A DNA stretch of 64,000 bases, taken from positions 23,452 through 87,451 of IMG/VR virus record IMGVR_UViG_3300037502_000580; one strand, 5' to 3'. The DNA is from a virus. The position numbers and the translations under genes are program-made. The notes beneath the pieces were generated by a model, which was given only the letters and a program-made list of their open reading frames with translations, searched no databases and was not told the origin of the DNA. This document shows, one piece after another, positions 2,775 to 56,098 of this stretch. Each line of letters opens with the position of its first letter. The first letter of the stretch is position 1.

Positions 2775-2800
2775 AAAAAAATCCCAGCGTATAGCTGGGA
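2775..2800 (-). terminator. Rho-independent terminator
   Basis: Minus strand TCCCAGC-TATAC-GCTGGGA followed by T7. Confidence 0.75.
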
Positions 2801-2937
2801 CTGGGCAGTTTCTGAAAAGTTCCGTCACATTGTGACGATTAGGCGAATAAAAATAGGTGTGGGGTCAACTCTCTGGAGACACGGAAAATGATCTAACCGT
2901 AAAAGGAAAGCCCCCCACTGCGGGTGTTGTTCGCATG

Positions 2938-7898: not shown

Positions 7899-7986
7899 TA
7901 CATCTACCGCCTACATCTGCCGTCACAATGTGACAGCCCCAGCCATACATCAACAACTTAATAGACAAATCTATAACCTACCCTTA

Positions 7987-8015
7987 TTGGACAAGAAAAG
8001 CCGAACAAAAGTTCC
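7987..8015 (-). promoter_or_regulatory. SigmaE/AlgU-type ECF promoter
   Basis: Minus strand GGAACTT-TTGTTCGGCTTTTCTT(16)-GTCCAA then TAAGGGTAGG. Confidence 0.75.
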
Positions 8016-8031
8016 CTACCCCTGAAATGTT

Positions 8032-8217
8032 TCAGGTTACATTCAGGAAGTCTTGACCGAACCATCCACTGCTCCCATCGGCAAAGGCGATCTTGTAGTA
8101 GATGTTGTTGCCGAACCATTCCCACTCGACTACTAGTCCGGCATCATCAATGCCACGCACATCTACGACCTCGCCCACATTAAACATCTGCCCGATGTCA
8201 CTTTGTGACACGCTCAC
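8032..8217 (-). CDS. Small SH3/KOW-like hypothetical protein
   Basis: FNVGEVVDV...YYKIAFADGSSGWF; AGGAGG RBS. Confidence 0.6.
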   Translation of the reverse strand: MSVSQSDIGQMFNVGEVVDVRGIDDAGLVVEWEWFGNNIYYKIAFADGSSGWFGQDFLNVT

Positions 8218-8220
8218 CTC

Positions 8221-8367
8221 CTAATAAGAAAGCATCATCAGAATCATGTAGGCCAGGAACGCAGCAAAGGCAAGACCAAGAACGCCTAAGAAGTCAAGGA
8301 ACACTGCCCTAAATTCCTTTGCCCGACGAATACGCCTACGCCTTTCGATTGAGTTGATTGAAGTCAT
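8221..8367 (-). CDS. 48-aa membrane protein (not in ORF track)
   Basis: Hand translation MTSINSIERRRRIRRAKEFRAVFLDFLGVLGLAFAAFLAYMILMMLSY; fills the gap with an ATGA overlap. Confidence 0.6.
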   Translation of the reverse strand: MTSINSIERRRRIRRAKEFRAVFLDFLGVLGLAFAAFLAYMILMMLSY

Positions 8368-8576
8368 ACATCTCCCCCTTTTTCTCCGCGTGAATAGATC
8401 GTGTCCATCGTCTCTGCTACGAACGACAGGGCAATGCGCTTCTCAGTGCCACTACGAAACGCCGCCACAGCCAGCACGAACGCTAGTGCTGGTATCACTT
8501 GATCGATATGGTGACCATTGAGCGCCTCATCTATCTGCATGAGTAGGCGCTTGTACTTCTTATCGTCTATTTCCAT
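8364..8576 (-). CDS. Hypothetical protein
   Basis: Start moved to MEIDDKK after GGAGG. Confidence 0.6.
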   Translation of the reverse strand: MEIDDKKYKRLLMQIDEALNGHHIDQVIPALAFVLAVAAFRSGTEKRIALSFVAETMDTIYSRGEKGGDV

Positions 8577-8580
8577 TTCC

Positions 8581-8883
8581 CTACCTCCATGTCCTATGCG
8601 TCTCCGCAACATGCTCCATCCCGTCGTACTCCTCGACGAACCACTCCACGCCATCCGGCACAGAGAGAACCTTCAACTCGGCGTAGTTACCATTGGCCCT
8701 ATCGCCTAACTCCTCAACGACTGCCACCAGATCGGCATCGTCGCGGGGCAGGAAATACTCCAGGGTCGCCTTGGCCTCATCGTTGTCCTCGTAGTTCTCA
8801 CCCTTGCGAATCGCTAACATCTTTATGGCAAGGTCAGACAGTCCGAACCCGCCATAGCATCTATTAACCACGACTTTCTGCAT
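8581..8883 (-). CDS. Conserved phage protein (KVVVNRCYGGFGLS...EYDGMEHV family)
   Basis: Recognisable widespread phage motif. Confidence 0.8.
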   Translation of the reverse strand: MQKVVVNRCYGGFGLSDLAIKMLAIRKGENYEDNDEAKATLEYFLPRDDADLVAVVEELGDRANGNYAELKVLSVPDGVEWFVEEYDGMEHVAETHRTWR

Positions 8884-8884
8884 C

Positions 8885-8968
8885 TCAAATCCCCCACACA
8901 TTTAAAAGAATCAGCCCACCGCACACGGTCAGCACTAGGAAATAAAAAATAAAGATCATCTGTCCCAT
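8885..8968 (-). CDS. 27-aa hydrophobic peptide
   Basis: MGQMIFIFYFLVLTVCGGLILLNVWGI after AAGGAG. Confidence 0.5.
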   Translation of the reverse strand: MGQMIFIFYFLVLTVCGGLILLNVWGI

Positions 8969-8978
8969 CTCGTTCTCC

Positions 8979-9290
8979 TTATGGTCTACCATCAGCGCCA
9001 ACCCAACCCATGCCGACATAGTCGCTAGGGTCTTCGTAGTTCTCAACCATGTCCATGTGGTCAGCGATTGTCCACACGGGCTTCTGCTTGCCGTCGAACC
9101 CGAACGCTCTCCACTTGTACAACGCGAACGGCACACATGACTTATGCTCTCCTCCTTTCATGGCATTAATCAATCGCCAATTCCAATGATCTGTTACTCG
9201 GTTGGAATGGTTGTATGCCCATGTCCATGGTTGTGGTCGTTTGCATGTCCACGGCTGTGGGCGCTTGCTGTATCTTTCCGCTCTGTTCAT
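8979..9290 (-). CDS. Hypothetical protein with KRPQPWT duplication
   Basis: ORF from MNRAERY. Confidence 0.55.
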   Translation of the reverse strand: MNRAERYSKRPQPWTCKRPQPWTWAYNHSNRVTDHWNWRLINAMKGGEHKSCVPFALYKWRAFGFDGKQKPVWTIADHMDMVENYEDPSDYVGMGWVGADGRP

Positions 9291-9291
9291 C

Positions 9292-9549
9292 TCACACCGC
9301 CTTTCCGTCACTTTGTGACACCTCACGAAGCCTCTGAACCAAGGCCACCAAACTCTCATCTATGCAGTCGTCATCACCGAACGCGCCCATGTCACCGTCG
9401 AACAAGGCAAGGAACTCGGCACACTCACCGCTAACTTCTTCAGCCGTGGCCTGCAGTATCTGCTCATCGCGGTTGTCGTCCTGAACCAGCAACGCAAGGG
9501 CATACGCCCGCTCTAACATCTCAATCAATCTATCCATACTCTCGTCCAT
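9292..9549 (-). CDS. Acidic hypothetical protein
   Basis: ORF in operon. Confidence 0.6.
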   Translation of the reverse strand: MDESMDRLIEMLERAYALALLVQDDNRDEQILQATAEEVSGECAEFLALFDGDMGAFGDDDCIDESLVALVQRLREVSQSDGKAV

Positions 9550-9550
9550 C

Positions 9551-9847
9551 TCACACCCCCTCGTTGACTAAACCGCCTTTGTTGTTGATGCCCACTGCCG
9601 CCTCGCGTGCGAAGGCAGAAGTGAAGTACATCGCCCCTTGTTTGTGTGGTGTTAAAACACACCATAACTTCCTATCCTGTCTTGCCTGCTCCTCGCCACA
9701 CTCAAGGCACACGCGCTTGCCAATCTGCCACCGGGCGAACTCAATGTAGTCACCGCACATGCGGCACTGCGGATCATTGAAGTCGCGGGTTTCTGGTTGC
9801 TGATGTGTGTGGTGTTGTTGGTACTGCGTTTTGGTTTGCATGCTCAT
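9551..9847 (-). CDS. Zinc-finger protein (DksA/TraR C4-like spacing)
   Basis: CRMC...CLEC; first gene after an ECF promoter. Confidence 0.65.
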   Translation of the reverse strand: MSMQTKTQYQQHHTHQQPETRDFNDPQCRMCGDYIEFARWQIGKRVCLECGEEQARQDRKLWCVLTPHKQGAMYFTSAFAREAAVGINNKGGLVNEGV

Positions 9848-9928
9848 CTCCAGGTTTGCGGGGTGTCACATTGTGACGACCCCAGGGGTTAAAGAAAAAT
9901 CAAACACAAAAACTTATCCCTACCCTTA

Positions 9929-9957
9929 TTGGACAACGAAACCTGATGATAAGTTCC
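9929..9957 (-). promoter_or_regulatory. SigmaE/AlgU-type ECF promoter
   Basis: Minus strand GGAACTT-ATCATCAGGTTTCGTT(16)-GTCCAA then TAAGGGTAGG. Confidence 0.8.
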
Positions 9958-9973
9958 CTAAAGCTGAATTAAA

Positions 9974-10357
9974 TCAAGGACTTACACGACTACCCACCCT
10001 CCTCTTTTTCTCCTCATCAAACAACACCCCGCTGAGCGCCTCGACCACCAGCATCCCCGTGGCTATGCCCATCGAATACCTACCATGCCCACGCCCTGCG
10101 GCATGCAGTCCTCGGTTGATAACTTCTCCTAAATTAAACTGCCGTACCATCTGCCCTACCGACTCCCCCTGCTCATCGAACTCCAGCCGTGCTATCTGTA
10201 AGTTGGGGTTGCACAGCCCGTACTCTTTGACCACACCCGCCAGCACATAGAACGCCTGCGCTTCGTACTCATAGGTGTCAAGTTGTTGTCGTAGCAGGGT
10301 TATTTGTTGTTGCAGTTGGTTTATTTGGTTTATCAGGTCTGCTCGTTCGTCTTTCAT
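9974..10357 (-). CDS. Hypothetical protein with N-terminal coiled coil
   Basis: ORF with ATGA overlap. Confidence 0.65.
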   Translation of the reverse strand: MKDERADLINQINQLQQQITLLRQQLDTYEYEAQAFYVLAGVVKEYGLCNPNLQIARLEFDEQGESVGQMVRQFNLGEVINRGLHAAGRGHGRYSMGIATGMLVVEALSGVLFDEEKKRRVGSRVSP

Positions 10358-11097
10358 TTTCTCCCCCGTATCGCACTGGCGATTAACTCGTCTAGTTTTA
10401 CCCTCAATAACTCAGCCACCACGGCATCGGCTAACTCATCTTCCTTGACCTCCACGGTTCGCAGTGTCTTCATCTCGTCTTTGACTGTCTTCACCTCATC
10501 CTTTAGTGCCCTGAGTTCCAGCTTTAGTTCCTTGATGTTGTCGAGAATCTGCTGACCCAGGCTGATCTTGGGGGCTATGTTGTTTGGGTTAGTTGCGTGG
10601 GTTGCGCCAGGGGTTGCGTTGCCCGTTGCGCCGGGGGTTGCGTGTTCTTGATTCAGTGGATCCTGCTCTAACTTCTCATTGACTCGCCTGTTGTGCTTGG
10701 TGCGCGGCCCCTCGGATAGTTGGCAGTGGGCGGGGTTCACACACAAGGGGTTGCGGCATACCCGTGTGATGCGCCCAAGGGTTGCGGGGTCTTGGTGCAG
10801 GAGGGTGTTCAGGCGTTTGAAGATGTAAGAGTGCGCGGGGTAATTCATGTACCGGGCGGAGCCTTGGTTCTTGTCGGTTGCGCCTTGCCATTCCCAGCAG
10901 GGGAGGCCTTTGGTTTGGGGGGTGAGTTTGGCGGCAAGGGCCAGCTTCACGGGGTCTGTCACGATGTGACAGTTCTGCCGAACCCAGGCGAGGAACTCGC
11001 TCTTTTGGGGGTCTGATAATGGTTGATCATCGCGTAGGGGAATTCCGGCACGGTCGATGAATTTGGGGTGTGGGGTGGTTTGGGGGACGAAACGCAT
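10354..11097 (-). CDS. HNH-like (His-Me finger) protein with C-terminal coiled coil
   Basis: CWEWQGA...AHSYIF...RVCRNPLCVNPAH. Confidence 0.7.
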   Translation of the reverse strand: MRFVPQTTPHPKFIDRAGIPLRDDQPLSDPQKSEFLAWVRQNCHIVTDPVKLALAAKLTPQTKGLPCWEWQGATDKNQGSARYMNYPAHSYIFKRLNTLLHQDPATLGRITRVCRNPLCVNPAHCQLSEGPRTKHNRRVNEKLEQDPLNQEHATPGATGNATPGATHATNPNNIAPKISLGQQILDNIKELKLELRALKDEVKTVKDEMKTLRTVEVKEDELADAVVAELLRVKLDELIASAIRGRK

Positions 11098-11130
11098 GGG
11101 GTGGACTCCGTGAGTGTGGGGGGAAAAGGG

Positions 11131-11158
11131 TTCGACAGGGGAGGCGTGGGGAAGTTCC
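11131..11158 (-). promoter_or_regulatory. Probable sigmaE-type promoter (15-nt spacer)
   Basis: Minus strand GGAACTT-N15-GTCGAA, 33 nt upstream of the HNH-like gene. Confidence 0.55.
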
Positions 11159-11162
11159 AGCG

Positions 11163-11470
11163 TGGTTTACAGATTGTAAACGATAGGGTAAATGGGGTGG
11201 GTGTTGTAATTTTGCGTCATAAATTTCTTTAATTTACTTATATATTACTAATTTGTTTGAGCTGAACATTATTATATTACCTTTTTTCTAAATTTCCGAG
11301 GAAAATCATGCGCGGAGCAAAAAATACCCCTTTTTTACGGTTTACAATCTGTAAACCAACGAAACGACATTTTTGGGAACGCCAAAACTGCCGGAAAAAA
11401 AGAAAAAAGGTAATATAATAGTAGTGTAGTAGTAGTAGTATAGTAATATATAAGTAAATTAATGAAATTT
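11163..11470. repeat. AT-rich nested inverted repeats, candidate replication origin
   Basis: 11221-11250/11441-11470 (29/30 match), 11270-11289/11401-11420 (20/20), 11163-11181/11340-11358 (19/19). Confidence 0.85.
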
Positions 11471-11643
11471 AATATCTCCTAAGCAATGCTTGTGCCAACT
11501 TTCGGGGGAGTGTCACAAAGTGACAAAAAAACTGCTTTTTTGCGGTTGATGGCGAGAATTCGTGCGATACCAGTTCCCCCTGCAAAGGGCCATGGATCCC
11601 TGCGGGTAAGATGTTCATGGGTGTGTCACATTGTGACAGGCGC

Positions 11644-11670
11644 AAAAAAACCCCAGGTGTTGCCTGGGGT
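11644..11670 (-). terminator. Rho-independent terminator
   Basis: Minus strand CCCCAGG-CAACA-CCTGGGG then T7. Confidence 0.8.
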
Positions 11671-11688
11671 GTTAAGGGTTGGGGTTGC

Positions 11689-12267
11689 TTAGACTGCTTC
11701 TTTGAGGAGTCCGTCTTCGATTGCCGCTTCTTCGATATCGGGCCACATGGTCAACAGGTTCTCGACCGCCTGGGGTTCGCACTGCGACAGGTGATTGCGG
11801 AGAACACGCAACGCTTCCGCTACTTTGTCATAGGATGTTGTACCCGAACCCGTCCCTGGCGCCGCTTCCCTAGGCGTGTACCGATCTAGCCCTAAGATCT
11901 CAACGCAGTAGGTCAAGAATCGGCTGTACTGCTCACGCGGATTACCGCCTGATTCCGAACGCGCCTTGACACGCTCGACGATTGCCGTCTTGATACCCTG
12001 GGCGTATTCCTTGTGGGTCTTCGCCTGTTCAGAGTTCTCCGATTTCAGGAAATCGACCGCACGCTTCGCTTCCTTGACGATTGCCGGATCACGCTTGCTC
12101 AGCATCGCGTAGTGGATCCACTCAGACCCGAACAGGTTGATTGCCTCGTGGGCGGAAGCACGCCACTGCGCCTTGATTGATTCTCTTGCCTGGGACTCGA
12201 TATCGAGAGCCTGGTCAACGATAGCGGCGAACACTGCGAACTTCTCAACGGTTGTTTGAACTTGCAT
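11689..12267 (-). CDS. Unknown early protein, paralog A (192 aa, MQVQTT...)
   Basis: ATG 12267 with GGAG RBS; about 70% identical to 13019..13603. Confidence 0.9.
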   Translation of the reverse strand: MQVQTTVEKFAVFAAIVDQALDIESQARESIKAQWRASAHEAINLFGSEWIHYAMLSKRDPAIVKEAKRAVDFLKSENSEQAKTHKEYAQGIKTAIVERVKARSESGGNPREQYSRFLTYCVEILGLDRYTPREAAPGTGSGTTSYDKVAEALRVLRNHLSQCEPQAVENLLTMWPDIEEAAIEDGLLKEAV

Positions 12268-12338
12268 TTTTGAATCTCCTGGTAAGATGTCACAATGTGA
12301 CAGGGTTGGTTTAACATCATTACTGCGTCCTACCCTTA

Positions 12339-12367
12339 TAAGACAATGAAACCTGGTGATAAGTTCC
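12339..12367 (-). promoter_or_regulatory. SigmaE/AlgU-type ECF promoter
   Basis: Minus strand GGAACTT-ATCACCAGGTTTCATT(16)-GTCTTA then TAAGGGTAGG; palindrome abuts the -35. Confidence 0.75.
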
Positions 12368-12511
12368 GTCACAGTGTGACAAGTCCAGGCGCAACTGGCG
12401 AGGCATTGCTGGGTGATGGCGAGAATTCGTACGATACCAGTTCCCCCCGCGCAGGGCCGGTGCATGCAGGCAGTGTCACATTGTGACGGGTCAGTGCAAG
12501 AATTTCGGGCG

Positions 12512-12538
12512 AAAAAAAAACCCGCCGATTGGCGGGTT
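12512..12538 (-). terminator. Rho-independent terminator
   Basis: Minus strand CCCGCC-AATC-GGCGGG then T9. Confidence 0.8.
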
Positions 12539-12556
12539 ATGTGGAGGGGGGCGGAC

Positions 12557-12778
12557 CTAGATTTTAAAGAGGGTTCCCCGTCTGAGGTTCCCGTATCTGA
12601 TCATGATATCGGTAAACCCATCTGCCTTCAGTGCCTCAGTATCGCGGGAGCTGAGGTATCCGTGAACCTTCATACTCTCGGCCTTGAAATCTTTCCCGGC
12701 CTGCCAATCTGCCATGGCTTCCTTCGCGTTTTTGTAGTCACGGCCATATGCGGGGGATACAGTTAAAAGGTTAATCAT
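12557..12778 (-). CDS. Small phage protein (PAYGRDYK...DWQAGKDF)
   Basis: Start moved to MINLL after AGGAG. Confidence 0.7.
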   Translation of the reverse strand: MINLLTVSPAYGRDYKNAKEAMADWQAGKDFKAESMKVHGYLSSRDTEALKADGFTDIMIRYGNLRRGTLFKI

Positions 12779-12803
12779 TGTTTTCTCCTGAGATGTTAAA
12801 GGG

Positions 12804-12959
12804 TTAAAACCAAACTTCATCTTGCACACCATCACGGAGGCAGAAGGTCTCGCATGCGTCTGCAATGACCCCGAGGTTCCCGATGATGGGCAGATGGGCG
12901 ATGAAATTAAAAAGATATCCGATGGGTGATTTCAGAAATGAAACGATATGTTTTTTCAT
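12804..12959 (-). CDS. 51-aa hypothetical protein (not in ORF track)
   Basis: Hand translation MKKHIVSFLKSPIGYLFNFIAHLPIIGNLGVIADACETFCLRDGVQDEVWF; GGAG RBS. Confidence 0.55.
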   Translation of the reverse strand: MKKHIVSFLKSPIGYLFNFIAHLPIIGNLGVIADACETFCLRDGVQDEVWF

Positions 12960-13018
12960 GGCTAAATTCTCCGATTAGGGTTAAGACCCCCGTCACGATG
13001 TGACGGGGGGAAGGGTTA

Positions 13019-13603
13019 CTACACCGACTCTTTCAGAAGGCCATCAGTCACTGCGGCTTCTTCAATGTCTGCCCACATCTCTAGGACATTCTCCACGGCC
13101 TGAGGTTCACATTGGGGCAGGTGGTTTCTCAGGACACGCAAGGCCTCTGCGACTTTATCGTATGAGGTGGTGCCTGAACCTGTGCCGGGGGCTTTGGCCT
13201 CTTTCGGCACATAGACATCAGTCAGGCCTGCGGCCTCCACCGCATAGGCCAGAAACCGACTCCATTGTTCGCGGGGATTTCCGCCATCCTCTGAACGGGC
13301 CTTCACGCGATCAGTCACTGCGGCCTTGATGCCTGAGGCATACTCTTTAATCGTTTTATAGGTCTCAGAGTTTACGGCCTTTAACTCTGCCACCTTGCGT
13401 TTGGCAGTCGCGGCAATGGCCTCATCGCGTTTGGAAAGCATGGCGATGTGAATCCATTCATTACCGAATAGATCGATGGCCTTGTGTGACATGTCACGCC
13501 ATGCGGCCTTAATCGCGGCAGAGGCCTCAGACTGAAGGTCAAGGGTAGCGTCAACAATGGCGCCGAAGGATACTAGCTTTTCGTTTGTCGTTTGTACTTG
13601 CAT
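13019..13603 (-). CDS. Unknown early protein, paralog B (194 aa, MQVQTT...)
   Basis: ATG 13603 with GGAG RBS; paralog of 11689..12267. Confidence 0.9.
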   Translation of the reverse strand: MQVQTTNEKLVSFGAIVDATLDLQSEASAAIKAAWRDMSHKAIDLFGNEWIHIAMLSKRDEAIAATAKRKVAELKAVNSETYKTIKEYASGIKAAVTDRVKARSEDGGNPREQWSRFLAYAVEAAGLTDVYVPKEAKAPGTGSGTTSYDKVAEALRVLRNHLPQCEPQAVENVLEMWADIEEAAVTDGLLKESV

Positions 13604-13673
13604 TTTTAAATCTCCAGAAGGTGTCACATCGTGACGGGTTAAGGGTTACTAAGGTTTTCTGCCCTAGTGACGG

Positions 13674-13702
13674 TTGGACAATGAAAGCCGGGGATTAGTT
13701 CC
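13674..13702 (-). promoter_or_regulatory. SigmaE/AlgU-type ECF promoter (first promoter of the early arm)
   Basis: Minus strand GGAACTA-ATCCCCGGCTTTCATT(16)-GTCCAA. Confidence 0.7.
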
Positions 13703-14033
13703 CTGACATGTCACGATGTGACGGGGTACCGGACGGGGGCACCCCCCGCCAGCGAGGGGGGGATGGAGCCTCATGACATATTAAACCGCACGACCAATCT
13801 CAACTTTTTCAAACTCCCCCCTCCCCTATGTTAGTCTTCGCTAACTTACCCGTACCCCCCATTTCCCCTAATACCACCCCCTTGTTTTCTGCTGGAGTCC
13901 CGGCTCCTTCGGTGCTATATTTTTCTGGGGTAGGTAGTCGGCGCGGCGACTCTAAACAGCCCGTAGCTCCTTTGGCTGGGTGCAAATGTAAAAATCCTAC
14001 CCCCCTACTATTTTTTGTGTTTATAATCCGCGC

Positions 14034-23283: not shown

Positions 23284-23538
23284 ATGGCTAAGACCCCGGC
23301 TTGGCAGCGTAAAGAAGGCAAGAACCCTAAGGGTGGTTTAAATGCCAAAGGACGTGCCTCTTATAATGCTGCTAATCCGGGTAAGCCTGGGCTAAAGGCT
23401 CCGCAACCTGAGGGTGGCGCTCGTAAGAAGTCATTCTGTGCCCGTATGACCGGCATGAAGAAGAAACTTACTTCTGCAAAGACCGCGAATGACCCGAACA
23501 GCCGGATCAATAAATCTTTACGTGCATGGAAATGTTAA
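23284..23538 (+). CDS. DUF6321-like basic protein
   Basis: AWQRKEGKNPKGGLNAKGRASY...SFCARM...SRINKSLRAWKC. Confidence 0.75.
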   Translation: MAKTPAWQRKEGKNPKGGLNAKGRASYNAANPGKPGLKAPQPEGGARKKSFCARMTGMKKKLTSAKTANDPNSRINKSLRAWKC

Positions 23539-39452: not shown

Positions 39453-39889
39453 TGCTACCCATTGCCGCACTGCTGTCTATCGGAGAAAAGGTACTCGATA
39501 AGGTACTTCCCGATCCCCAGGCCAAAGCCGAAGCCCAGGCCAAACTCATGGAGATGGCACAGAAGGGGCAGCTGGCTGAACTGGAGTTCATGGCTAAAGA
39601 GATGGACTCAGCCAGACGGCGGGAGATTGAGATTGCGGTATCGGCTAATGCGCCCTTCATCAGCAAGGTAGTGACGCCTATCCTGGCGCTAGGCACGGTT
39701 GGCCTGACCTTTATCCTCTTTACCGTCATCATTTTTGTAGATGTCAACGCCCAATCTAAAGACATTCTGGTCTACGTGCTGGGCGGTCTTACCTCTGCCA
39801 TGACTATGGTGCTTGGGTACTACTTCGGTAGTTCTGCTGGTAGTAAAGAGAAAACTAAACAGATTGACGATCTGCTTGAGAAGAAATGA
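39449..39889 (+). CDS. Holin-like protein (GTA-type 3TM holin-like)
   Basis: DKVLPDP..KAEAQ..L, SARRRE, TM helices, YYFGSS. Confidence 0.7.
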   Translation: MMLPIAALLSIGEKVLDKVLPDPQAKAEAQAKLMEMAQKGQLAELEFMAKEMDSARRREIEIAVSANAPFISKVVTPILALGTVGLTFILFTVIIFVDVNAQSKDILVYVLGGLTSAMTMVLGYYFGSSAGSKEKTKQIDDLLEKK

Positions 39890-39896
39890 CTTGGTT

Positions 39897-39998
39897 TGAC
39901 AAGATTCTGTACATGACGGATAAGGAATGACAAGATTCTGTACATGACGGATAAGGAATGACAAGATTCTGGCTATAACAGATAAGGAATGACAAGAT
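39897..39998 (+). repeat. 31-bp tandem repeat x3.3
   Basis: TGACAAGATTCTGTACATGACGGATAAGGAA x2, a diverged third copy and a partial fourth. Confidence 0.95.
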
Positions 39999-39999
39999 A

Positions 40000-40467
40000 A
40001 TGACCCAACTGACCAAGAACTTCAGCCTAGCCGAGATGGCCAAAAGTGAGACGGCGTTGCGTCATGGTCTTGAGAACAACCCTGGCCCAGATGAACTAAA
40101 CAACTTGCTGAACCTCTGCGCCAACGTATTGCAGCCTATCCGTGACCACTATCAGAAGGGTGTCAAGGTCAACTCGGGCTATCGCTCGCCAGACGTAAAT
40201 GCTAAAGTGGGCGGGTCGAGAACCTCGGATCACTGCCGGGGAATGGCTGCTGACATTGAGATACCGGGGGTGCCAAATGCAGAGCTTGCTGCTTATATTA
40301 GAGACAACCTGGCTTACACACAGCTTATTCTGGAATTCTATACTCCTGGTGTACCTGACAGTGGTTGGGTTCATGTTAGTTACGATGACAAAGATCTGAA
40401 GAAACAGGTCTTGACCGCAACCCGTAAAGACGGCAAAACCGTATATCTGCCTGGACTGGTAGCCTAA
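40000..40467 (+). CDS. Endolysin, peptidase M15A family
   Basis: NFSLAE, SGYRS..N..VGG..S.H..G.AADI, WVHVS. Confidence 0.9.
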
Positions 40468-47382: not shown

Positions 47383-48911
47383 TGAGTCTTGAATCTCTAG
47401 ACCGCGCCGTAAAAGGAACTATTGACCTTTCGGTAGGCGACATTATCGCTAAGTACGGCACTACACCAGCTATAGCGATGGCGGTGCAACGAGGTGAAAT
47501 TAAGAACGTTACCAACGCGGTTATGGCTGGTATGGCTATTGATCGTATTGCCGCAAATGCGCTTAAGCCTCCTACAACTACCGTAGCTCAAGACACTCTG
47601 CCTATGGGGCAGGCACCTCAAACTGGTGTAGCCGCAGCGCAACAAATGCAGGGTCAACCTGCAGGTGCTGGGTTAGATCAGATCCCCATTTCCGAAGGCA
47701 TGTTTACCGCAGCTAATGGCGGCATCGTTGCGTTTGAGGACGGTGGAAGCACCATGTTTACAGGAAGTCCGTTAGGCTCAGATGTTCGCGGCTTAGCCCA
47801 GGTCTCTCCGCGTATTCCAAGCTTTTTTAGCCCCAGCGCAATTTTCTTTAACTACATGACTGATGAAGAAAAAGAAAAGTATCAGACTACAGGGGTTGTT
47901 CCTGAGGCAGCAAAAAAACGGTATCAGAACTCAGCCAATACGCAAGGCGCACAAGCACAGCTTAATGAAAACATAATCGCTCAAGCCCAGCGTGGTGAGG
48001 GACCGAATGTGTCTAGACCTGCTGCACCGGCAGATGCAGCTGTTGTACCTTCTGGTGGCCCTGTAATACCTAGGCCGACTGGGGTAGAAGCTGTGGCTGC
48101 GCCTACTTCTGTAGTTAAAAAACCTGAAGCCGCAGCTAAGCCGCTAAGCATATTTGACGAAGCTAGTAACGCTGCTAATAAACTACAGGCTTATAAGACC
48201 CAGTTTGGCGTTGGTGGTGCTGATCCTGATGCGGCTATGCGTGACAAGCTCAAGCAGTTGCAAGAAGGTACTAAAGAAGAGCGTCGAGAGGCTGCGTACA
48301 TGGCTATGATCATGGCTGGTCTTGGCATTGCTGGTGGTACTTCTCCGTATGCTGCGGTCAATCTTAAAGAAGCCATACCTGCACTTAAAGAATACGGTGT
48401 TGCTAAACGCGACATCAAGAAGGCAGATATGGAATACACCAAGATGGAGACCGAGATTAATCGTGCTGCCGAGGCTAGAAAACGTGGTGACATGGAGCTT
48501 GCGCTTAAACTAGAAGAGAGCGCAGCAGATAGGGATCTAAAACTCCGTCAAGTTATTGCTGCAGAGAGAGCGGCTAGTAAGCCTAGCCAGCTTCGTGAGC
48601 TTATTGACTTAGCTGCCGGTGGTGATCAATCCAAAGTACAGTCATTGGCAGAAGGCGCGTTAAAAGATAAATCTGGTTCTAAGCCTATGAGTCAGTATGA
48701 GCGTGCTAGGTTGCAACAAGTAGGCATGAAAAATGCTAGTGATGAGATACGCAATAATAGACAGATTTCTAGACTAGCTAACAGCAAAGATCCAAAAGAC
48801 AAAGCAGAAGCCGAAAGATTACGTAACGAAATAATTGCTAAACACATGCAGTCAGCTTCTGGCGGCTCTAATCTAGGTGGTGCTGTCTTTGTTGGTTATG
48901 GAGACGAATAA
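47382..48911 (+). CDS. Internal virion/ejection protein
   Basis: Helical; NGGIVAFEDGG motif; position. Confidence 0.65.
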   Translation: MSLESLDRAVKGTIDLSVGDIIAKYGTTPAIAMAVQRGEIKNVTNAVMAGMAIDRIAANALKPPTTTVAQDTLPMGQAPQTGVAAAQQMQGQPAGAGLDQIPISEGMFTAANGGIVAFEDGGSTMFTGSPLGSDVRGLAQVSPRIPSFFSPSAIFFNYMTDEEKEKYQTTGVVPEAAKKRYQNSANTQGAQAQLNENIIAQAQRGEGPNVSRPAAPADAAVVPSGGPVIPRPTGVEAVAAPTSVVKKPEAAAKPLSIFDEASNAANKLQAYKTQFGVGGADPDAAMRDKLKQLQEGTKEERREAAYMAMIMAGLGIAGGTSPYAAVNLKEAIPALKEYGVAKRDIKKADMEYTKMETEINRAAEARKRGDMELALKLEESAADRDLKLRQVIAAERAASKPSQLRELIDLAAGGDQSKVQSLAEGALKDKSGSKPMSQYERARLQQVGMKNASDEIRNNRQISRLANSKDPKDKAEAERLRNEIIAKHMQSASGGSNLGGAVFVGYGDE

Positions 48912-51900
48912 TGCCTATAGCCCGGTTTCGGCTTCCAAATGGCAAGATTGCGCGATTTCAAGTACCCGAAGGGCTAAGCCAAGAAGAGTTAGAAGACTTA
49001 GTAGCCCCTCAGCTATTTGCGCTTTCTAGAGAAGAACCAAAGCCTGAGCCTCGTAAAGCCGAGGATGTTGGGTTTATTGAAGGCACTATGGCTGCATTGG
49101 GCCGAGGCATTTCGTCTTTTGGCGATATTGCGTCCGGTTACGGCGTAGGTGCTACGTCAGCAGTCGGTGCGACTGATGCGACCCGCAGGCAGATGGAGGC
49201 TATTAAGGCTGAGTCTCAGGTGCCTGATGAAACGCCGGGTATGACGGCTGCTGGCATAGGCAAGCTGTATAAAGAAGAAGGACTGTTGTCTGCGGCATCT
49301 GAGGTGCCTAAGTACGTCTCTGAGCAAATAATGCAAGCTGCGCCGCAGATGGCGGTCCCCCTTGCGGCTGCAAAAGTTGCGGGTGCGCTATCCGGTCCTG
49401 CTGCCCCTATCGTTGCTCCTGCAGTTGGTATTGGTACGTATGCACTGCAGCAGTTCGGTAACTTTCTGTACCGACAGGCCCAAGAGAAAAAAGATCCCGA
49501 AGAAATTGAGGTTACCAAGGCTGCACTTACTGCGGCTGGTACAGCACCGCTTGGTTACTTTGCCGACCGGTTTACCCTTGGTCTGTCGAGTATAGGTGGT
49601 CAGAAGGCTGGCGTTGAGGTTATGAAGGAGCTTGCTGCTCGTAGGGCGGCAGGTGCTATTGGCACGGGAGCGGTAGCTAAGGGTGTGGCTGCTCAAGCAG
49701 CTAAGGGTGCTACGGTCGGTATTATTGCTGAGGCACCGACAGAGGTTCTTGAGTCTGTAGCTGAGCGCTGGCAGGCTGGGTTAAAGCTAGATACCGATGA
49801 CGCTAAAGATGAGTACACTGAAGCGTTCTTCGGCGCTGCCGCTGTTGGTGGTGGACTCGGTGCCGGTTCTAGTGCAGCTAGATCTACTGGGCAGTACTTA
49901 GCCGAGAAGCGTGCACTAACGCCTGAGAAGCCAGCTACCGAAGGAAAGACCGCGTTTGACCAAGCCGACGAAGATGAGGCTGGTGAAGTAGTAACGCCGC
50001 CTGAAGATAAAGATGCCGACTTACCTGATCCGTTTGCCGACATAAACCTACCAGATATTTCTAAAGAAGAATTTGCTGCTGCTCTTAAGGCTGAAGAAGC
50101 TAGGTTAGGCCGTAAGCTTACCTACCCAGAGCAAGGGATTCTTCTAAAGCAGGTGCAAAGGGCTAAGTTCCTTGCAGATACGCCAGATGATCCGATGTTT
50201 GCACCGGCTCCTGGGCAAGAGCTTGATGAAGAAGGTATGCCCAAACTTGGGCCTGGGCGGTTCACACGCCTTACTGAGTTTGAAAAAACGCTAACGCAGA
50301 AAGACCTTATTGATGCTGGCATACCGCCAGTAAAGGCTAACTATTACGCTAGACAAGCTCAGTCAAATCCCAACAGAGTCAACGCCGAGGCTAAAGAAGC
50401 ATTCCGTATTGCCGCTGCCCAGAAGTCCGGGGGGCAACAAATACTACTGGCACCGTCAGAAGAACAAAGAACTGAAGCAGAAAAGGCAACCGAAGAATCT
50501 GTTAGCCAGTATGAAGAACCACTTAACCCAAAAGTTACGCCGCTAGTTTCAGCGCTTAATAAGCAAAATATTCCTACTACGTTATCTGGAGATTTATACG
50601 GAAAAGATCTCGTATATGTGGATATTGACGCTCCGTGGGACACTAAAATTCCTGGCTTGCCAAAAGGATGGTTTACCGGACCAAACTCTTATTTTCATAC
50701 AGAAGCTGTAGCTGGTCTCCCAACAGTTGGTGAGATGTGGAAAGACCCCCAACTAAGCGTTGAAGAGCTTAAAAGACAAAATCTTCGACCGATGCTACGG
50801 CTTGCGCGTCCCGGTGGCGCGGTTTCTGCAGCTGAGGCCCAACAAGTTACATCTGCTGTTGAAGCTGCACTAAAGAAACAAGGGTTGCAACCAACAGAAA
50901 AACCAGAAGAAGCACCGGCTACACGTGGGCTGTCACGTGCCGCTAAAAGGGTCAATGAAGATGACCTGACAAACGCGGGCTTCCAGCCATCTGAGATTGC
51001 AGAGATTACCTCTCGGCCAGATTTACCAAAGAACCAAGATATTCTTGAGAAGGTGGCGATGGGCTTTGCCTACACCACCTACGATCAGTCTTTGGCTGAA
51101 GAAGGTCCAGCTACAGGCCGTGAGTTTAAGCAGGTAAGCCCACAAGATATCGAAGCTGCGCCCCCTGCAGAGCGTGCTAGGTTAAGAAGGGTATATAACG
51201 CAAATATCCTGCAACGGCCTACCCGTGCAGAGAAGCCTGATGAGGCTCAAGGTTCTTTGTTTGCTCCTGGTAAACAGATGGGGTTGGATCTTGGTGAGGC
51301 TACAGAAGAAACTACTAGAGATTTACCTAAGTCCCTTATCGAAGAAGCACCGTTTGAGTTGGAGGCTGCACCGGGTGTGGCCCCCGGTAGGACTGATATT
51401 GCTGCAGAAGAAGCTGCGCCGACTGAAGGTGCGCCCTTAAGGGCTGTCGAGAAAACGACAAACAAGCTCTTTGATTTCTTGCGTGGGCTTAAGCCTATTG
51501 CTCAGGCCGAGCAGGGTGTAAAGAACCATCAGAGCGCCATCAATAATTTCATAGACGAAATAAACGAATACGTCGCGCCAAAAGAAGGGGCTACGCCAGA
51601 GCAACGGTCTGAGAACCTTGCGGCTATAAACGACTTCTTTGACCAGTATTCCTTAACTGAAGATGCTGCAGAGGCGGCTGATGTCTTAACAAAAGCTAAA
51701 GATCTACCTCTATCTCAGCAGATACAGTTTCTAAACGAGCGCACCAGACTGCCTAGCCTCTCTAAATTAGAAGGGGTGAACCTGCTACGGCAAGAGTTCC
51801 AAGACTTTATGAACGAGCGTGCCAAGACCAAACTTGGCTACACTCCAGCGGAGTCTGCGCTAAACGTTCTTAAGTTGTGGCAAGACGTGGTCATGCCTGA

Positions 51901-54900
51901 GGGTAGGGTAAAGACCGCTATAAAAGCATTGCGTAATAAGCTGGCCTCAACACGCACGGCAGCAGAACAGGCTGCGGCTAACTACCTTGGCACGTTTGAC
52001 TACGGCACGGCTGTGCGCTCTGCCGCCTACGACATTGCTAACGATGTACGTACAGGTGAGAACTTTAAGGGTCAAGGCAAGAAAGAGGCAGAACTCTTTC
52101 AGCAGTACATGGAAGAAAACTTCCCGGCAGAGGTCTACCAAGAGTTTCAAAGTCTAGTAGAGGCGTACAAGGCTAACTTTAGAAAAGCTGCAAACGCCAT
52201 GTATGCGCTAAGTAAAAAACAGAAATCCATAGCTAAGCTAAAAGAAGCCGGTGTTAGTGCTGAGTCGGCTGGCAAACTACTTGACCGGTATGGGTTGCAC
52301 TCTGGTACCCCTGGTGTGTTCAGACCTATGCACCCGGCTGTTGCCGAGCGGGTAAAGAACAATGACCTAAACGGTGCACTCAGACTTATGGCTAGGCTTG
52401 GCGGTAAGACTAGCTACTACGGTCGTGTAGCCGAGCGCCTTCTAGCTCTTAACCTTCCGACCTCCATCTACTTCGATATGCAGGGGCCGATGGTGCAGTT
52501 GCGGCTTGACGATGTACAGCCGTCGCTAGATCTTTTCTTAGATAACCTTAAGGTACAAAACCCCGAGCTGCATAAAGATCTGTTTGAGAACGCAACACCA
52601 CGACAGACTCTAGAGGGTCTCAGGATCATAAAAGAGAACAAGCTCTTACCTGAGGACTACTTAAATGGCCCTGCGTTTAAGTACATCTATGACTCGTACA
52701 ACAAGCTAATTCGTAGCTTGGATGCTGGCGGCTTTTATCTTTTGCAAGAAGACGCTATTAACATCAACCAAGATGTTGGCGGTGCCACCTACTACACGCT
52801 ACTGCACGAAGCAGTCCACGCGGCGACGGCCTACGCTATAAACACGCCAGATGCACTTAGCCCCTCGCAGAAAGAGGCACTAAACAACCTTAAGAAGCTC
52901 TACGAAGACGCTAAGCAAAGCTCAAAACTCAAGCCTTATGGCTTCACTAATCTGCATGAGTTTGTGGCAGAGGCGTTTACTAATAGCGAGTTTCAGCAGT
53001 TGCTGCGGTCTAAGCCATACGATGAGCCGGGTGGGCCGTCGATGTGGTCTAAGTTTATTCGGTATGTCGTAGAACTTTTTGCTGGCAAGAGAGACAACAT
53101 GCTCTTTGCTACGCTCTACAACGCCGACGTGCTTATGTCTTCTAGCAGGCCAGCTGGTCCAAAGGCTGGGTTCTCTGCGCCTCTTGCAGCAAACGCAGCA
53201 CCGACAAAAAGCCCCCTAGATGGGTCATGGAGAACTGCACCTGATGTTGTGCGTTCTAGAGCATGGCTAAACTCTTTGCTGTCTAGGCCGTCTTGGCAAG
53301 AGGTCAAAAAGAATGTCGGGCCGTTCTTAGAGACGTTGTCTGATGCAACGCGGCAACACTATCTTGGTGCCTTTACATTACGGCAGCTAAAAGATTTGGT
53401 TGGCAACCGCCTCGGTGGTTATGCAGACGCATTCATTAACACGCTAGAGAACATGCTGGATAGCCGTAACACTATCCTGCAACAAGTATCTGACATAACT
53501 AAGACTTGGGAACTTTATCAGTCAGCTAACCCCGAAGAGACACGCAAGATGAATCTTGTAATGATCTCGGCAACGCTTGCTGGTTATGACCCTGACTCGC
53601 CTACCAGAACTCCACAAAATAAAGCCGAACAAGAAGTGCAAGATGCTTGGGATGTTCTGCCTGACGAGGCCAAGAATATATATCGCAAAGTTCGTGACTT
53701 CTATAAAGAGCGCATTGAGGCGTACCAGAATGTAATTCTGGAAAACGTCGAGCGTGCCATGATTGCGAATAACAAAACGCAGGCTGAGATTGACGCACGT
53801 AAGCAAGAGCTTAGAGAGAAGTTTGCGAAGGATCGTATACAGCCCTACTTCCCCCTAAAGCGCTTTGGCAAATACTGGCTGCAGGTCAATAGAACGTCGC
53901 CGACAACAGGTAAAGCTGAGAAAAAACAGTTCTACATGTTTGAGTCTGCCGCGCAACGTAACGCGTTTAGGCAACAGGTGGCTAATGAGTTACTTGCTGA
54001 AGGTAAGACCGTTGAAGAGATTATGGGCGGCACAGACGCTAACAACCGTCCCATACAAGGCATTCTGTCTGAAGGTAACGATCTCAACAAGATGCTGAAC
54101 GTAGAGAATCTGCAAGACTTGCAGGCTCTTAAAACTATTAAAGATCTTGTTGAAGCCTCTACCGGTGGCACGCCTCAAGAATTAAAAGACTCGATACAAG
54201 ATAGCATTGACCAGCTGTATCTGCTGACACTTCCAGACCAGTCGGCTCGGAAACTGTTTATTAATCGTAAGCAGGTAGAGGGTGCTAGTGCAGATATGCT
54301 TCGTGCCTTTACGCACTCTGCATTCCACATGGCTTACCAGCATTCTCGGTTTGAGCACGCACAGAGTCTATACACTCTTTTATACGGTGCCGAGAACGCA
54401 TACGTAAGTAGGGATAGCGGGTTCCCTGCAGACCAACGTAAGGTTGCCGGAGACTATGTTGGCGAGTTGCGTAAGCGCCTTACCTACGCAATGAACCCTA
54501 CCGACACCGGTGTTATACCTTCGTTTTTGTCTAACTTATCGTTTATCTGGTTCTTGACTGCGCCAGCATCTGCGCTAGTTAACATGCTTGGTGTGCCAGC
54601 ATTTGGCCTGCCTGTGGTCGGTGCTAGATTTGGATGGGGTAAGTCATCTGCAGCGATGGCGCAATATTCTAAAAGGTTCTTTAGCACTGGGTTTAAATTT
54701 AAGCGCGGTGAAGGCTTAACGTTCCCTTCGTTAGACAGAGCTAACCTAAGTCAAATAGAGAAGCAGGCGTTTGATCGGTTTGTTAAAGACGGTCTTATTG
54801 ACGTTACGCTGTCGCATGACCTTGTCGGTATGGCAGAAGCGCCGACTAACTTGTACACCGGCAAAATGCACAAAGTAATGCGTGCACTTAGCTACATGTT

Positions 54901-56098
54901 CCACAACGCGGAGAAGTACAACCGTGAGGTGGTAGCCATGAGTACATTCAAGTTAGCCTACGACAAAGCCATAGCAGACAAAATGTCTCCTGATAAGGCA
55001 ATGGAAAAAGCCATAGAGACAGCTAAAGACCTGACTTACAGGTCTATGTTTGACTACTCTACTCTTAACAAGCCACGCTTCTTCCAGCCTGCATACGCCA
55101 AAGTCATTCTGCAGTTTAAGCAGTTTGCTCAGCAGCTAACGTACTTGTTGGGCCGCAGCGTGTATGAGTGGGGTACTAGCCAAGATAAAGACGTAAGAGA
55201 TGAGGCACGTGCGCGTGTCTTAGGTGTTCTCGGCATGACTGGCCTTTTTGCTGGTGCGACCGGTATGCCACTTTTCTCGACGATTGCGTCTGTAATCGAA
55301 GCAATCCATGCGGTGTTTAGCGATGACGATGAACCTCCTTTAGACTTTGAGAATTGGTTCAAGAACTGGTCAGCAGAAACCTTTGGCAACTTCTGGGGTG
55401 ACTCTTTGTCGCGTGGCATCCTTACGCAAGCTACTGGCCTGAACCTCGCAGACCGTATGAGCCTTAACGATCTCTGGTTCCGTGACCCGCGTAAGAGCGA
55501 AGACGAAGTTACTGCATTTCAGAATATGGTCATCAACATGCTTGGCCCAACTGCGGGTTTGGCAATTAATAGTGTCGAGGCATTAAAAGCATTTAACGAC
55601 GGCCTGTATTACCGTGCTGCCGAGAAGGCGCTGCCTGCTGTTCTGAAGCAGCCGCTTGTTGGTATTCGGTATGCGACTGAAGGTGCGTTGACTATGAAGG
55701 GCGACACTCTGGTTGAGGACATCTCGGCTAAAGAAGCCCTTGCTCAGTCTTTAGGTTTCTCTCCTGAACGTGTTGCACAGCGGCAGAAGGCCAACATCGA
55801 GATGAAGTCTATGGAGCAGAAGATTATTAATAAGCGCCAGGATCTCATGAACGCCTACTTCTTAGCGTTTGATGCTAACGACGAAGATTTTATTAATCGT
55901 GTAGAAGATAAGATAGACCGGTTTAATGCTATGTATCCCGATTACCCAATTGAAGAAGAGTCCCTTAACAGGTCAATTGAAGGTAGATATCGTAGGCGCG
56001 ATGAGGCAGAAGAAACAGGCGGCATACCCATCAATAAGAACTTGTTGCCGGAATTGAAAAGCATGGGTGCCTACGGAGACGTAGACGAGGATGAATGA
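48911..56098 (+). CDS. Giant ejected polyvalent protein (zincin HExxH + PLxRFG domain)
   Basis: 2395 aa; LLHEAVHAAT...HEFVAEAFTN; YFPLKRFGKYW; last gene of the virion operon. Confidence 0.8.
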   Translation: MPIARFRLPNGKIARFQVPEGLSQEELEDLVAPQLFALSREEPKPEPRKAEDVGFIEGTMAALGRGISSFGDIASGYGVGATSAVGATDATRRQMEAIKAESQVPDETPGMTAAGIGKLYKEEGLLSAASEVPKYVSEQIMQAAPQMAVPLAAAKVAGALSGPAAPIVAPAVGIGTYALQQFGNFLYRQAQEKKDPEEIEVTKAALTAAGTAPLGYFADRFTLGLSSIGGQKAGVEVMKELAARRAAGAIGTGAVAKGVAAQAAKGATVGIIAEAPTEVLESVAERWQAGLKLDTDDAKDEYTEAFFGAAAVGGGLGAGSSAARSTGQYLAEKRALTPEKPATEGKTAFDQADEDEAGEVVTPPEDKDADLPDPFADINLPDISKEEFAAALKAEEARLGRKLTYPEQGILLKQVQRAKFLADTPDDPMFAPAPGQELDEEGMPKLGPGRFTRLTEFEKTLTQKDLIDAGIPPVKANYYARQAQSNPNRVNAEAKEAFRIAAAQKSGGQQILLAPSEEQRTEAEKATEESVSQYEEPLNPKVTPLVSALNKQNIPTTLSGDLYGKDLVYVDIDAPWDTKIPGLPKGWFTGPNSYFHTEAVAGLPTVGEMWKDPQLSVEELKRQNLRPMLRLARPGGAVSAAEAQQVTSAVEAALKKQGLQPTEKPEEAPATRGLSRAAKRVNEDDLTNAGFQPSEIAEITSRPDLPKNQDILEKVAMGFAYTTYDQSLAEEGPATGREFKQVSPQDIEAAPPAERARLRRVYNANILQRPTRAEKPDEAQGSLFAPGKQMGLDLGEATEETTRDLPKSLIEEAPFELEAAPGVAPGRTDIAAEEAAPTEGAPLRAVEKTTNKLFDFLRGLKPIAQAEQGVKNHQSAINNFIDEINEYVAPKEGATPEQRSENLAAINDFFDQYSLTEDAAEAADVLTKAKDLPLSQQIQFLNERTRLPSLSKLEGVNLLRQEFQDFMNERAKTKLGYTPAESALNVLKLWQDVVMPEGRVKTAIKALRNKLASTRTAAEQAAANYLGTFDYGTAVRSAAYDIANDVRTGENFKGQGKKEAELFQQYMEENFPAEVYQEFQSLVEAYKANFRKAANAMYALSKKQKSIAKLKEAGVSAESAGKLLDRYGLHSGTPGVFRPMHPAVAERVKNNDLNGALRLMARLGGKTSYYGRVAERLLALNLPTSIYFDMQGPMVQLRLDDVQPSLDLFLDNLKVQNPELHKDLFENATPRQTLEGLRIIKENKLLPEDYLNGPAFKYIYDSYNKLIRSLDAGGFYLLQEDAININQDVGGATYYTLLHEAVHAATAYAINTPDALSPSQKEALNNLKKLYEDAKQSSKLKPYGFTNLHEFVAEAFTNSEFQQLLRSKPYDEPGGPSMWSKFIRYVVELFAGKRDNMLFATLYNADVLMSSSRPAGPKAGFSAPLAANAAPTKSPLDGSWRTAPDVVRSRAWLNSLLSRPSWQEVKKNVGPFLETLSDATRQHYLGAFTLRQLKDLVGNRLGGYADAFINTLENMLDSRNTILQQVSDITKTWELYQSANPEETRKMNLVMISATLAGYDPDSPTRTPQNKAEQEVQDAWDVLPDEAKNIYRKVRDFYKERIEAYQNVILENVERAMIANNKTQAEIDARKQELREKFAKDRIQPYFPLKRFGKYWLQVNRTSPTTGKAEKKQFYMFESAAQRNAFRQQVANELLAEGKTVEEIMGGTDANNRPIQGILSEGNDLNKMLNVENLQDLQALKTIKDLVEASTGGTPQELKDSIQDSIDQLYLLTLPDQSARKLFINRKQVEGASADMLRAFTHSAFHMAYQHSRFEHAQSLYTLLYGAENAYVSRDSGFPADQRKVAGDYVGELRKRLTYAMNPTDTGVIPSFLSNLSFIWFLTAPASALVNMLGVPAFGLPVVGARFGWGKSSAAMAQYSKRFFSTGFKFKRGEGLTFPSLDRANLSQIEKQAFDRFVKDGLIDVTLSHDLVGMAEAPTNLYTGKMHKVMRALSYMFHNAEKYNREVVAMSTFKLAYDKAIADKMSPDKAMEKAIETAKDLTYRSMFDYSTLNKPRFFQPAYAKVILQFKQFAQQLTYLLGRSVYEWGTSQDKDVRDEARARVLGVLGMTGLFAGATGMPLFSTIASVIEAIHAVFSDDDEPPLDFENWFKNWSAETFGNFWGDSLSRGILTQATGLNLADRMSLNDLWFRDPRKSEDEVTAFQNMVINMLGPTAGLAINSVEALKAFNDGLYYRAAEKALPAVLKQPLVGIRYATEGALTMKGDTLVEDISAKEALAQSLGFSPERVAQRQKANIEMKSMEQKIINKRQDLMNAYFLAFDANDEDFINRVEDKIDRFNAMYPDYPIEEESLNRSIEGRYRRRDEAEETGGIPINKNLLPELKSMGAYGDVDEDE

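Follow-up and report, generated by a model that had tools for sequence, protein, structure and literature searches.

Two-box sites of the leftward gene arm

We analysed a 64,000-nucleotide (nt) window, the last 64 kb of the 87,451-bp IMG/VR virus record IMGVR_UViG_3300037502_000580 (positions 23,452 to 87,451), which derives from an uncultured freshwater phage, for a family of two-box sites that resemble the promoters read by RpoE (sigmaE) and AlgU, envelope-stress sigma factors of the extracytoplasmic function (ECF) type. The genes are organized in two arms. The plus strand bears a podophage-like particle module composed of terminase, portal, tail fibres, ejection proteins and a polyvalent protein of 2395 amino acids (aa), and the minus strand a leftward arm of 24 kb, which runs from window position ~13,700 past the left edge of the window to record position ~13,468. 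This leftward arm encodes a duplicated 194-aa early protein, small uncharacterized open reading frames (ORFs), a MoxR-like ATPase with a VWA/DUF2201 partner, a PD-(D/E)XK nuclease, a family A DNA polymerase, a helicase and a primase.

Seven sites with the two-box pattern, all on the minus strand, are distributed along this arm. P1 (P13702, window 13674–13702), GGAACTA-N16-GTCCAA or, counted differently, GGAACTA-N17-TCCAA, stands at the head of the arm. P2 (P12367, 12339–12367), GGAACTT-N16-GTCTTA, lies 3' of a terminator, with a palindrome abutting its −35 box. P3 (9929–9957) and P4 (7987–8015) are both GGAACTT-N16-GTCCAA; the former heads a cluster of small genes and the latter lies upstream of the MoxR-like ATPase/VWA gene pair. 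The original prediction had proposed these four sites, and a fifth in front of an HNH-like gene (GGAACTT-N15-GTCGAA, 11131–11158), as promoters placed in intergenic gaps at the heads of gene clusters. All five motifs are indeed present where it had placed them, intergenic and co-oriented with the genes; the fifth is nevertheless doubtful, its −35 half being deleted at the orthologous place in the closest relative, contig G001. To these we add P5 (2796–2823), GGAACTT-N15-GTCCCA, which the prediction did not contain and whose −35 box also abuts a palindrome, and a seventh site at record position 19603–19576, 3.8 kb to the left of the window and ~70 nt upstream of the helicase gene. Every site has GGAACTT or GGAACTA at −35. 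Leaving the doubtful site aside, the −10 hexamers are GTCCAA, GTCTTA, GTCCCA and GTCAGA, that is, TCnnA preceded by G. Four sites have 17 nt between the −35 box and TC and the other three have 16, both within the published RpoE/AlgU range.

The sites are far more frequent than chance predicts and strictly oriented. The window contains four copies of GGAACT-N17-GTC where 0.52 would be expected, a count that none of 100 shuffles reaches, and the 24-kb arm contains the two-box pattern seven times in sense and never in antisense orientation. The rest of the record shows background-level matches only; the structural arm carries no two-box sites, and shared k-mers revealed no other late-promoter motif there. 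Sigma70-like sites in the leftward arm do not exceed chance (3 found for 5.9 expected, and 6 for 6.7). P1 and P2 are not fully independent copies, because both sit in a tandemly duplicated cassette.

The similarity between copies extends beyond the boxes, as had been noticed before: TTTCnTT or TTTTCTT stands just 5' of the −10 box in all four N16 copies, and TAAGGGTAGG follows three sites directly (12338–12329, 9928–9919 and 7986–7977, minus strand). This block is the predicted start-site region. Its G run lies 4–6 nt past TCCAA, where a sigmaE start would be expected. The A/T-rich region upstream of the −35 box, strong in the related contig L016, is only weakly developed in the window; a palindrome or a TTTCAGG-type box stands in its place.

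Conservation of the sites in related phages

A pattern scan of viral contigs yielded G001, a 23-kb contig collinear with the arm at 70–80% identity. Protein searches added the more distant L015 (ATPase 71% identical) and a phage of 39.5% GC content carried on three contigs of metagenome-assembled genomes (MAGs), L016, L024 and L026. G001 has counterparts of six of the seven sites, at orthologous places. Over their −35 heptamers and −10 hexamers, 78 of 78 positions are identical between the record and G001, 48 of them being fixed by the search pattern; the free box positions are likewise invariant (30/30), while identity falls to 76% in the spacers, 55% upstream and 65–83% downstream. The clearest case is the ortholog of P1, where almost nothing but the two boxes survives. 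The arrangement of P5, with its palindrome, −35 box and terminator overlap, is conserved in G001 (10310) and L015 (12460), and P4 has orthologs upstream of the ATPase in L015 (GGAACTT-N16-TCTAA) and L024 (GGAACTT-N15-GTCTAA). In L015 and the L016 phage, GGAACT(T/A)-N16 is followed by TCTAA, TCTCA or TCCTA, with spacers unrelated to those of the record; these sites stand at the arm head, behind terminators and in front of the ATPase and helicase genes. The spacing in the relatives is mostly 16 nt.

The strand bias recurs as well, with 6 sense matches against 1 antisense in the arm of G001 and 5 against 0 in that of L015. When the relaxed RpoE form GGAACNN-N16/17-TCNNA is counted over the four early arms pooled, 30 matches are sense and 2 antisense, with shuffle means of 0.1–0.9 per arm. 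In natural variants from four metagenome runs, the P2 spacer carries a 1-nt deletion and a 1-nt insertion that compensate each other and leave the spacing unchanged. Because the boxes are invariant while spacers and flanks diverge, and because the sites are biased to the sense strand and kept at orthologous positions, the pattern reads as that of a bipartite promoter under selection, unlike a contiguous T7-type promoter or a plain repeat. The sites are thus very probably promoters.

The clade is remote from cultured phages. Terminase identity to the nearest of them is only ~58%, megablast gave no match to close cultured relatives, and the distant TerL relatives Pelagibacter phage HTVC027P and phage DSL-LC04 have another gene order and no GGAAC-type motif. 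DNA 97–99% identical to the record occurs in lake, freshwater, aquaculture and other aquatic metagenomes (13 studies).

The sigma factor predicted to read the sites

The E. coli sigmaE consensus consists of GGAACTT, a 16-nt spacer (15–19 allowed) and TCAAA usually preceded by G; transcription starts at a purine after a 5/6-nt discriminator, and the region upstream is A/T-rich (PMC1312014). The AlgU consensus is GAACTT-N16/17-TCtgA (PMC10651043). Boxes and spacing of the phage sites fit both. The likeness to the ECF02 promoters of E. coli RpoE and Pseudomonas–Azotobacter AlgU comprises GGAACTT, TCnnA usually after G, and the 16–17-nt spacer; a run of purines stands 5–6 nt downstream, and the L016 relative has an A/T-rich stretch upstream. 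Unlike in those regulons, the promoters here belong to a virus and not to an envelope-maintenance regulon. For Xanthomonas, the corresponding consensus would be GGAACT-N15-17-GTCNNA.

The original prediction saw no sigma factor gene in the window, and the same is true of the whole 87-kb record and of the relatives' contigs. Six-frame hidden Markov model (HMM) searches of the record with PF04542, PF08281 and TIGR02937 gave no sigma match, and the relatives' phage contigs matched neither sigma factors nor T7-type RNA polymerase (RNAP). A six-frame search for T7-type RNAP with PF00940 also gave no match, but this test is weak on its own because the family matched in no control genome. An ECF profile was then built from eight MAG sigma factors: hhalign of this profile with the 2395-aa protein, the 194-aa family and proteins of 319 and 298 aa gave probabilities below 1%, and hmmsearch --max against 671 ORFs returned only noise (best E 0.23). 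When the virion proteins were searched segment by segment with Pfam and Atlas, the only matches were polyvalent-protein (LPD) domains and a zincin motif. Since the hhalign, HMM, Pfam and Atlas searches revealed no sigma domain, we rejected its presence in the giant virion protein and the other ejection proteins. The "sigma-G factor" annotated in DSL-LC04 has no homolog in this record.

What the analysis shows is the motif with its counts, orientation, placement and conservation, together with the lack of a detectable phage sigma or RNAP gene; that the sites are active as promoters, where transcription starts and which sigma factor takes part are inferences. The promoters are likely to be of the ECF type, and we put the probability that a host RpoE/AlgU ortholog reads them at about 0.55. 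Since the phages have no recognisable sigma factor or RNAP of their own, they probably rely on a host stress sigma factor. Host core RNAP carrying a host sigmaE-type ECF sigma factor would bind GGAACTT at −35 and (G)TCnnA at −10 and start at the G run ~5 nt downstream of the −10 box, the phage bringing neither sigma factor nor polymerase. Together with intrinsic terminators, the promoters would split the 24-kb arm into cassettes, each begun by its own start, and late genes would use another transcription route. The proposal that early genes are driven by sigmaE/AlgU promoters stands as regards the ECF type, which is supported by the strand bias, the position and the preservation of both boxes across four phages; its restriction to early genes does not, as replication genes are served too. 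The two-box promoters thus appear to serve early and replication genes, and not the structural arm.

Several points weigh against the RpoE/AlgU assignment. Related contigs lie in MAG bins assigned variously to Flavobacteriales, Alpha- and Gammaproteobacteria, Peregrinibacteria, Saccharimonadales and Caulobacteraceae, and because these labels conflict they give no usable host signal; the strong Shine–Dalgarno sites speak against Bacteroidota as hosts. GGAACTT and TC are 17 nt apart in the four main sites, one more than the 16 nt preferred by E. coli sigmaE. Among the phage copies, the spacer (TTTCnTTG) and the +1 region (TAAGGGTAGG) are more alike than in cellular sigmaE regulons, which could reflect recent duplication or an extra recognition factor, and the same motif occurs at 39.5–52% GC, as would also be expected if the phage lineage carried the factor. 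Moreover, sigmaE is normally held by an anti-sigma factor, so that its use at time zero needs a release step that the assignment leaves unexplained.

Some of these features would be accommodated if a phage-supplied specificity factor, virion-delivered or divergent and sigma-like, read the promoters, their ECF look then being due to descent or convergence. Such a factor would account for a motif that is constant across relatives of 39.5–52% GC and for the additional conserved spacer and +1 bases shared by the copies, and a candidate vehicle exists in the 2395-aa polyvalent protein, which is probably ejected and has a zincin motif. We nevertheless consider it unlikely: no sigma domain was found in the record or in the relatives' phage contigs (HMMER, hhalign, Atlas), the boxes equal the cellular RpoE/AlgU consensus base for base, and the factor would have to be packaged, which is hypothetical, because the head-of-arm promoter must be active before phage genes are expressed. 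We rate lower still the possibility that host RNAP acts with a different ECF sigma factor that is not an RpoE/AlgU ortholog, in which case the link to envelope stress would vanish. A −35 GGAAC is common to several ECF groups, the MAG labels conflict over the host, and with their 17-nt spacing and TTGTCCAA form the sites depart slightly from the E. coli sigmaE pattern. To our knowledge, however, the full pair of GGAACTT and (G)TCnnA is specific to the RpoE/AlgU group, EcfG-type and SigW-type factors having CGTT or CGTA at −10. In addition, AlgU accepts a spacing of 16/17 nt (PMC10651043). The least probable reading is that the sites are not ECF promoters at all, but protein-binding or recombination boundaries of mobile cassettes, or contiguous promoters of a single-subunit phage RNAP. 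In its favour are the modular cassettes with palindromes and a second conserved box (GGAACTGGTATC..., see below), and the block TTGTCCAATAAGGGTAGG, which is superficially like T7-type promoters ending in TATAGGGAGA. Against it, conservation is bipartite, with spacers and +1 regions that diverge between orthologs (P1; L015 and L016), the orientation is strictly sense and the sites lie between a terminator and a ribosome-binding site; nor was a T7-type RNAP gene found, although the PF00940 search matched in no control genome.

Phages that depend on host RNAP are thought to begin from strong sigma70 promoters, alternative sigma factors usually coming later and being phage-encoded. Examples of ECF-like sigma factors with cognate promoters are encoded by phiEco32 (gp36) and phage 7-11 (PMC8948821). 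As in those phages, non-sigma70 two-box promoters would organize transcription here. They differ, however, in that phiEco32 and 7-11 encode a sigma factor for middle and late genes and use host sigma70 for early genes, whereas the present phage has no detectable sigma gene and the motif serves the first-expressed genes. A literature search found no account of phage early genes that use sigmaE promoters: the promoter class is known, and what appears to be new is its predicted use for the first and the replication genes of a sigma-less phage clade. If a host RpoE/AlgU ortholog does read these promoters, a widespread freshwater phage clade ties the success of infection to the envelope-stress state of the host, or needs a new form of sigmaE release. 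It is conceivable, though improbable, that the clade gave up sigma70 promoters, depends on the host envelope-stress sigma factor for all its early and replication transcripts and frees it at entry, for example through cleavage of an RseA/MucA-type anti-sigma factor by the zincin domain of the ejected 2395-aa protein, or through membrane damage by ejection; infection would then be wired to the envelope-stress response and hijack it. The connection with stress caused by adsorption or ejection, which the original prediction had raised, is speculation.

Terminators, palindromes and other features

Two of the sites come directly after intrinsic terminators on the minus strand, at 12519–12538, which ends transcription unit 1, and at 11650–11670, which ends unit 2. 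A third terminator (2780–2802, minus strand) overlaps the −10 box of P5. Since this box overlaps the 5' half of the terminator stem, read-through from upstream would stop there and transcripts begun at P5 would be without the full hairpin.

The palindrome GTCAC-N3-GTGAC occurs 21 times in the whole record, always in the leftward arm and about half the time inside genes. One copy (13710–13722) lies upstream of P1, and others stand beside promoters at 13623–13635, 12368–12380, 12289–12301, 9865–9877, 7922–7934 and 2824–2836. Each N16 promoter has a palindrome downstream, as predicted, 37–52 nt past the −10 box, and two of the N16 copies also have the predicted one at or near the −35 box (13722–13710, 7 nt before it; 12380–12368, 0 nt before it); in all, a palindrome lies 0–7 nt 5' of the −35 box at three promoters. 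The 5'-leader palindromes of four promoters are placed 10–15 nt before the ribosome-binding site in three cases and ~100 nt before the start codon in one. In the L016 phage, GTAAC-ACT-GTTAC occupies the same positions. Because this counterpart changed symmetrically and in the same places, the palindromes appear to have evolved together with the promoters, as a partner element that would be an RNA hairpin or an operator bound by a dimeric protein, and to be no substitute for the two-box promoters.

The early promoters of coliphage N4 are DNA hairpins with a 5–7 bp stem and a 3-nt loop, read by an injected virion RNAP. The early arm described here is similarly full of palindromes with a 5-bp stem and a 3-nt loop, and its ATPase is ~26% identical to N4-like homologs. 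Unlike in N4, no gene resembling the virion RNAP was found, the loop base is not conserved, many of the palindromes are intragenic as noted above, and they accompany two-box promoters instead of replacing them.

A second conserved box, GGGAAC(T/G)GGTATC-N8-10-CTC(G/T)CC (GGAACTGGTATC...), follows each cassette terminator in all phages (window 12433–12447 and 11566–11580, minus strand; L015 2552, 3341 and 4146; L016 1635 and 858). It is inverted once, beside P5 (window 2737, plus strand; L015 12549, minus strand), and may act as a weaker ECF-like promoter or bind a protein. Thirteen nucleotides after a palindrome, TGGCAC-N5-TTGCT (11482–11498, minus strand) forms a perfect sigma54-type −24/−12 motif, kept in G001 with changes only in the N5 spacer and alternatively readable as a sigma70 promoter, TTGGCA-16-GATATT. 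It points into an AT-rich island (11163–11470), a non-coding stretch that spans ~300 bp between cassette 2 and the HNH-like gene and contains nested inverted repeats. The island is also present, in diverged form, in G001 and may be an origin or a mobile insert.

The two arms are separated by a divergent control region (13723–13810) with G/C-run inverted repeats and a block, TTAATATGTCAT, that is kept in all four phages; the region may serve in packaging or replication or act as a late promoter. In the structural arm, a gap on the plus strand (39889–40000) contains three tandem copies of a unit of ~31 nt (GACAAGATTCTGTACATGACGGATAAGGAAT). An Rfam search gave no match above noise.

The first gene of the leftward arm encodes the all-helical 194-aa protein, whose tandem duplicate has 192 aa (13019–13603 and 11689–12267, minus strand). 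At least two copies are found at the arm head in all four phages (also G001, L015 and L016), and the protein matches no family, PHROG or PDB entry by fold or profile. We rejected it as a sigma or anti-anti-sigma factor, as its model is all-helical (pLDDT 81) with no sigma-like fold or PDB match. ORF 9551–9847 (minus strand) encodes a 98-aa member of a family that comprises at least 76 clusters of 70–75-aa proteins. A C4 zinc ribbon at the N-terminus and a conserved WCVLTPHKQGAMFFT...GINNKGGLVK domain at the C-terminus characterize these proteins; Pfam has no entry for the family, and cultured phages have no homolog. A role as a TraR/DksA-like sigmaE helper was also rejected: zf-dskA_traR scores below its cut-off (16.9 vs 24.9 bits), and the PDB gave no match. 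TraR/DksA regulators have a long N-terminal helix with an acidic tip ahead of their C4 zinc finger; the majority of the 76 homologs begin right at the zinc ribbon and have another C-terminal domain in common.

The MoxR-like AAA ATPase downstream of P4 (6745–7815, minus strand) is the protein with ~26% identical homologs in N4-like phages, among them those of Vibrio VBP47 and Pectobacterium phiA41. The early-gene pair is thereby shared with Schitoviridae, although there is no virion RNAP in this phage. The 2395-aa polyvalent protein (48911–56098, plus strand) has its zincin motif, HEAVH...HEFVAE, near residue 1330, together with an LPD39 domain and a 750-aa C-terminal domain that also occurs in other giant phage proteins; its homolog in the relatives consists of two ORFs of ~840–1040 aa.

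The first part of the record, positions 1–23369, is a second copy of window 40223–63475 at 68–80% identity, and both copies of ~23 kb carry the genes of the structural-arm end, the primase and the helicase. Because its first 23 kb thus repeats its last 23 kb, the 87-kb record probably represents ~1.37 genome lengths, with two related phages joined, and the true genome would measure ~63.6 kb.

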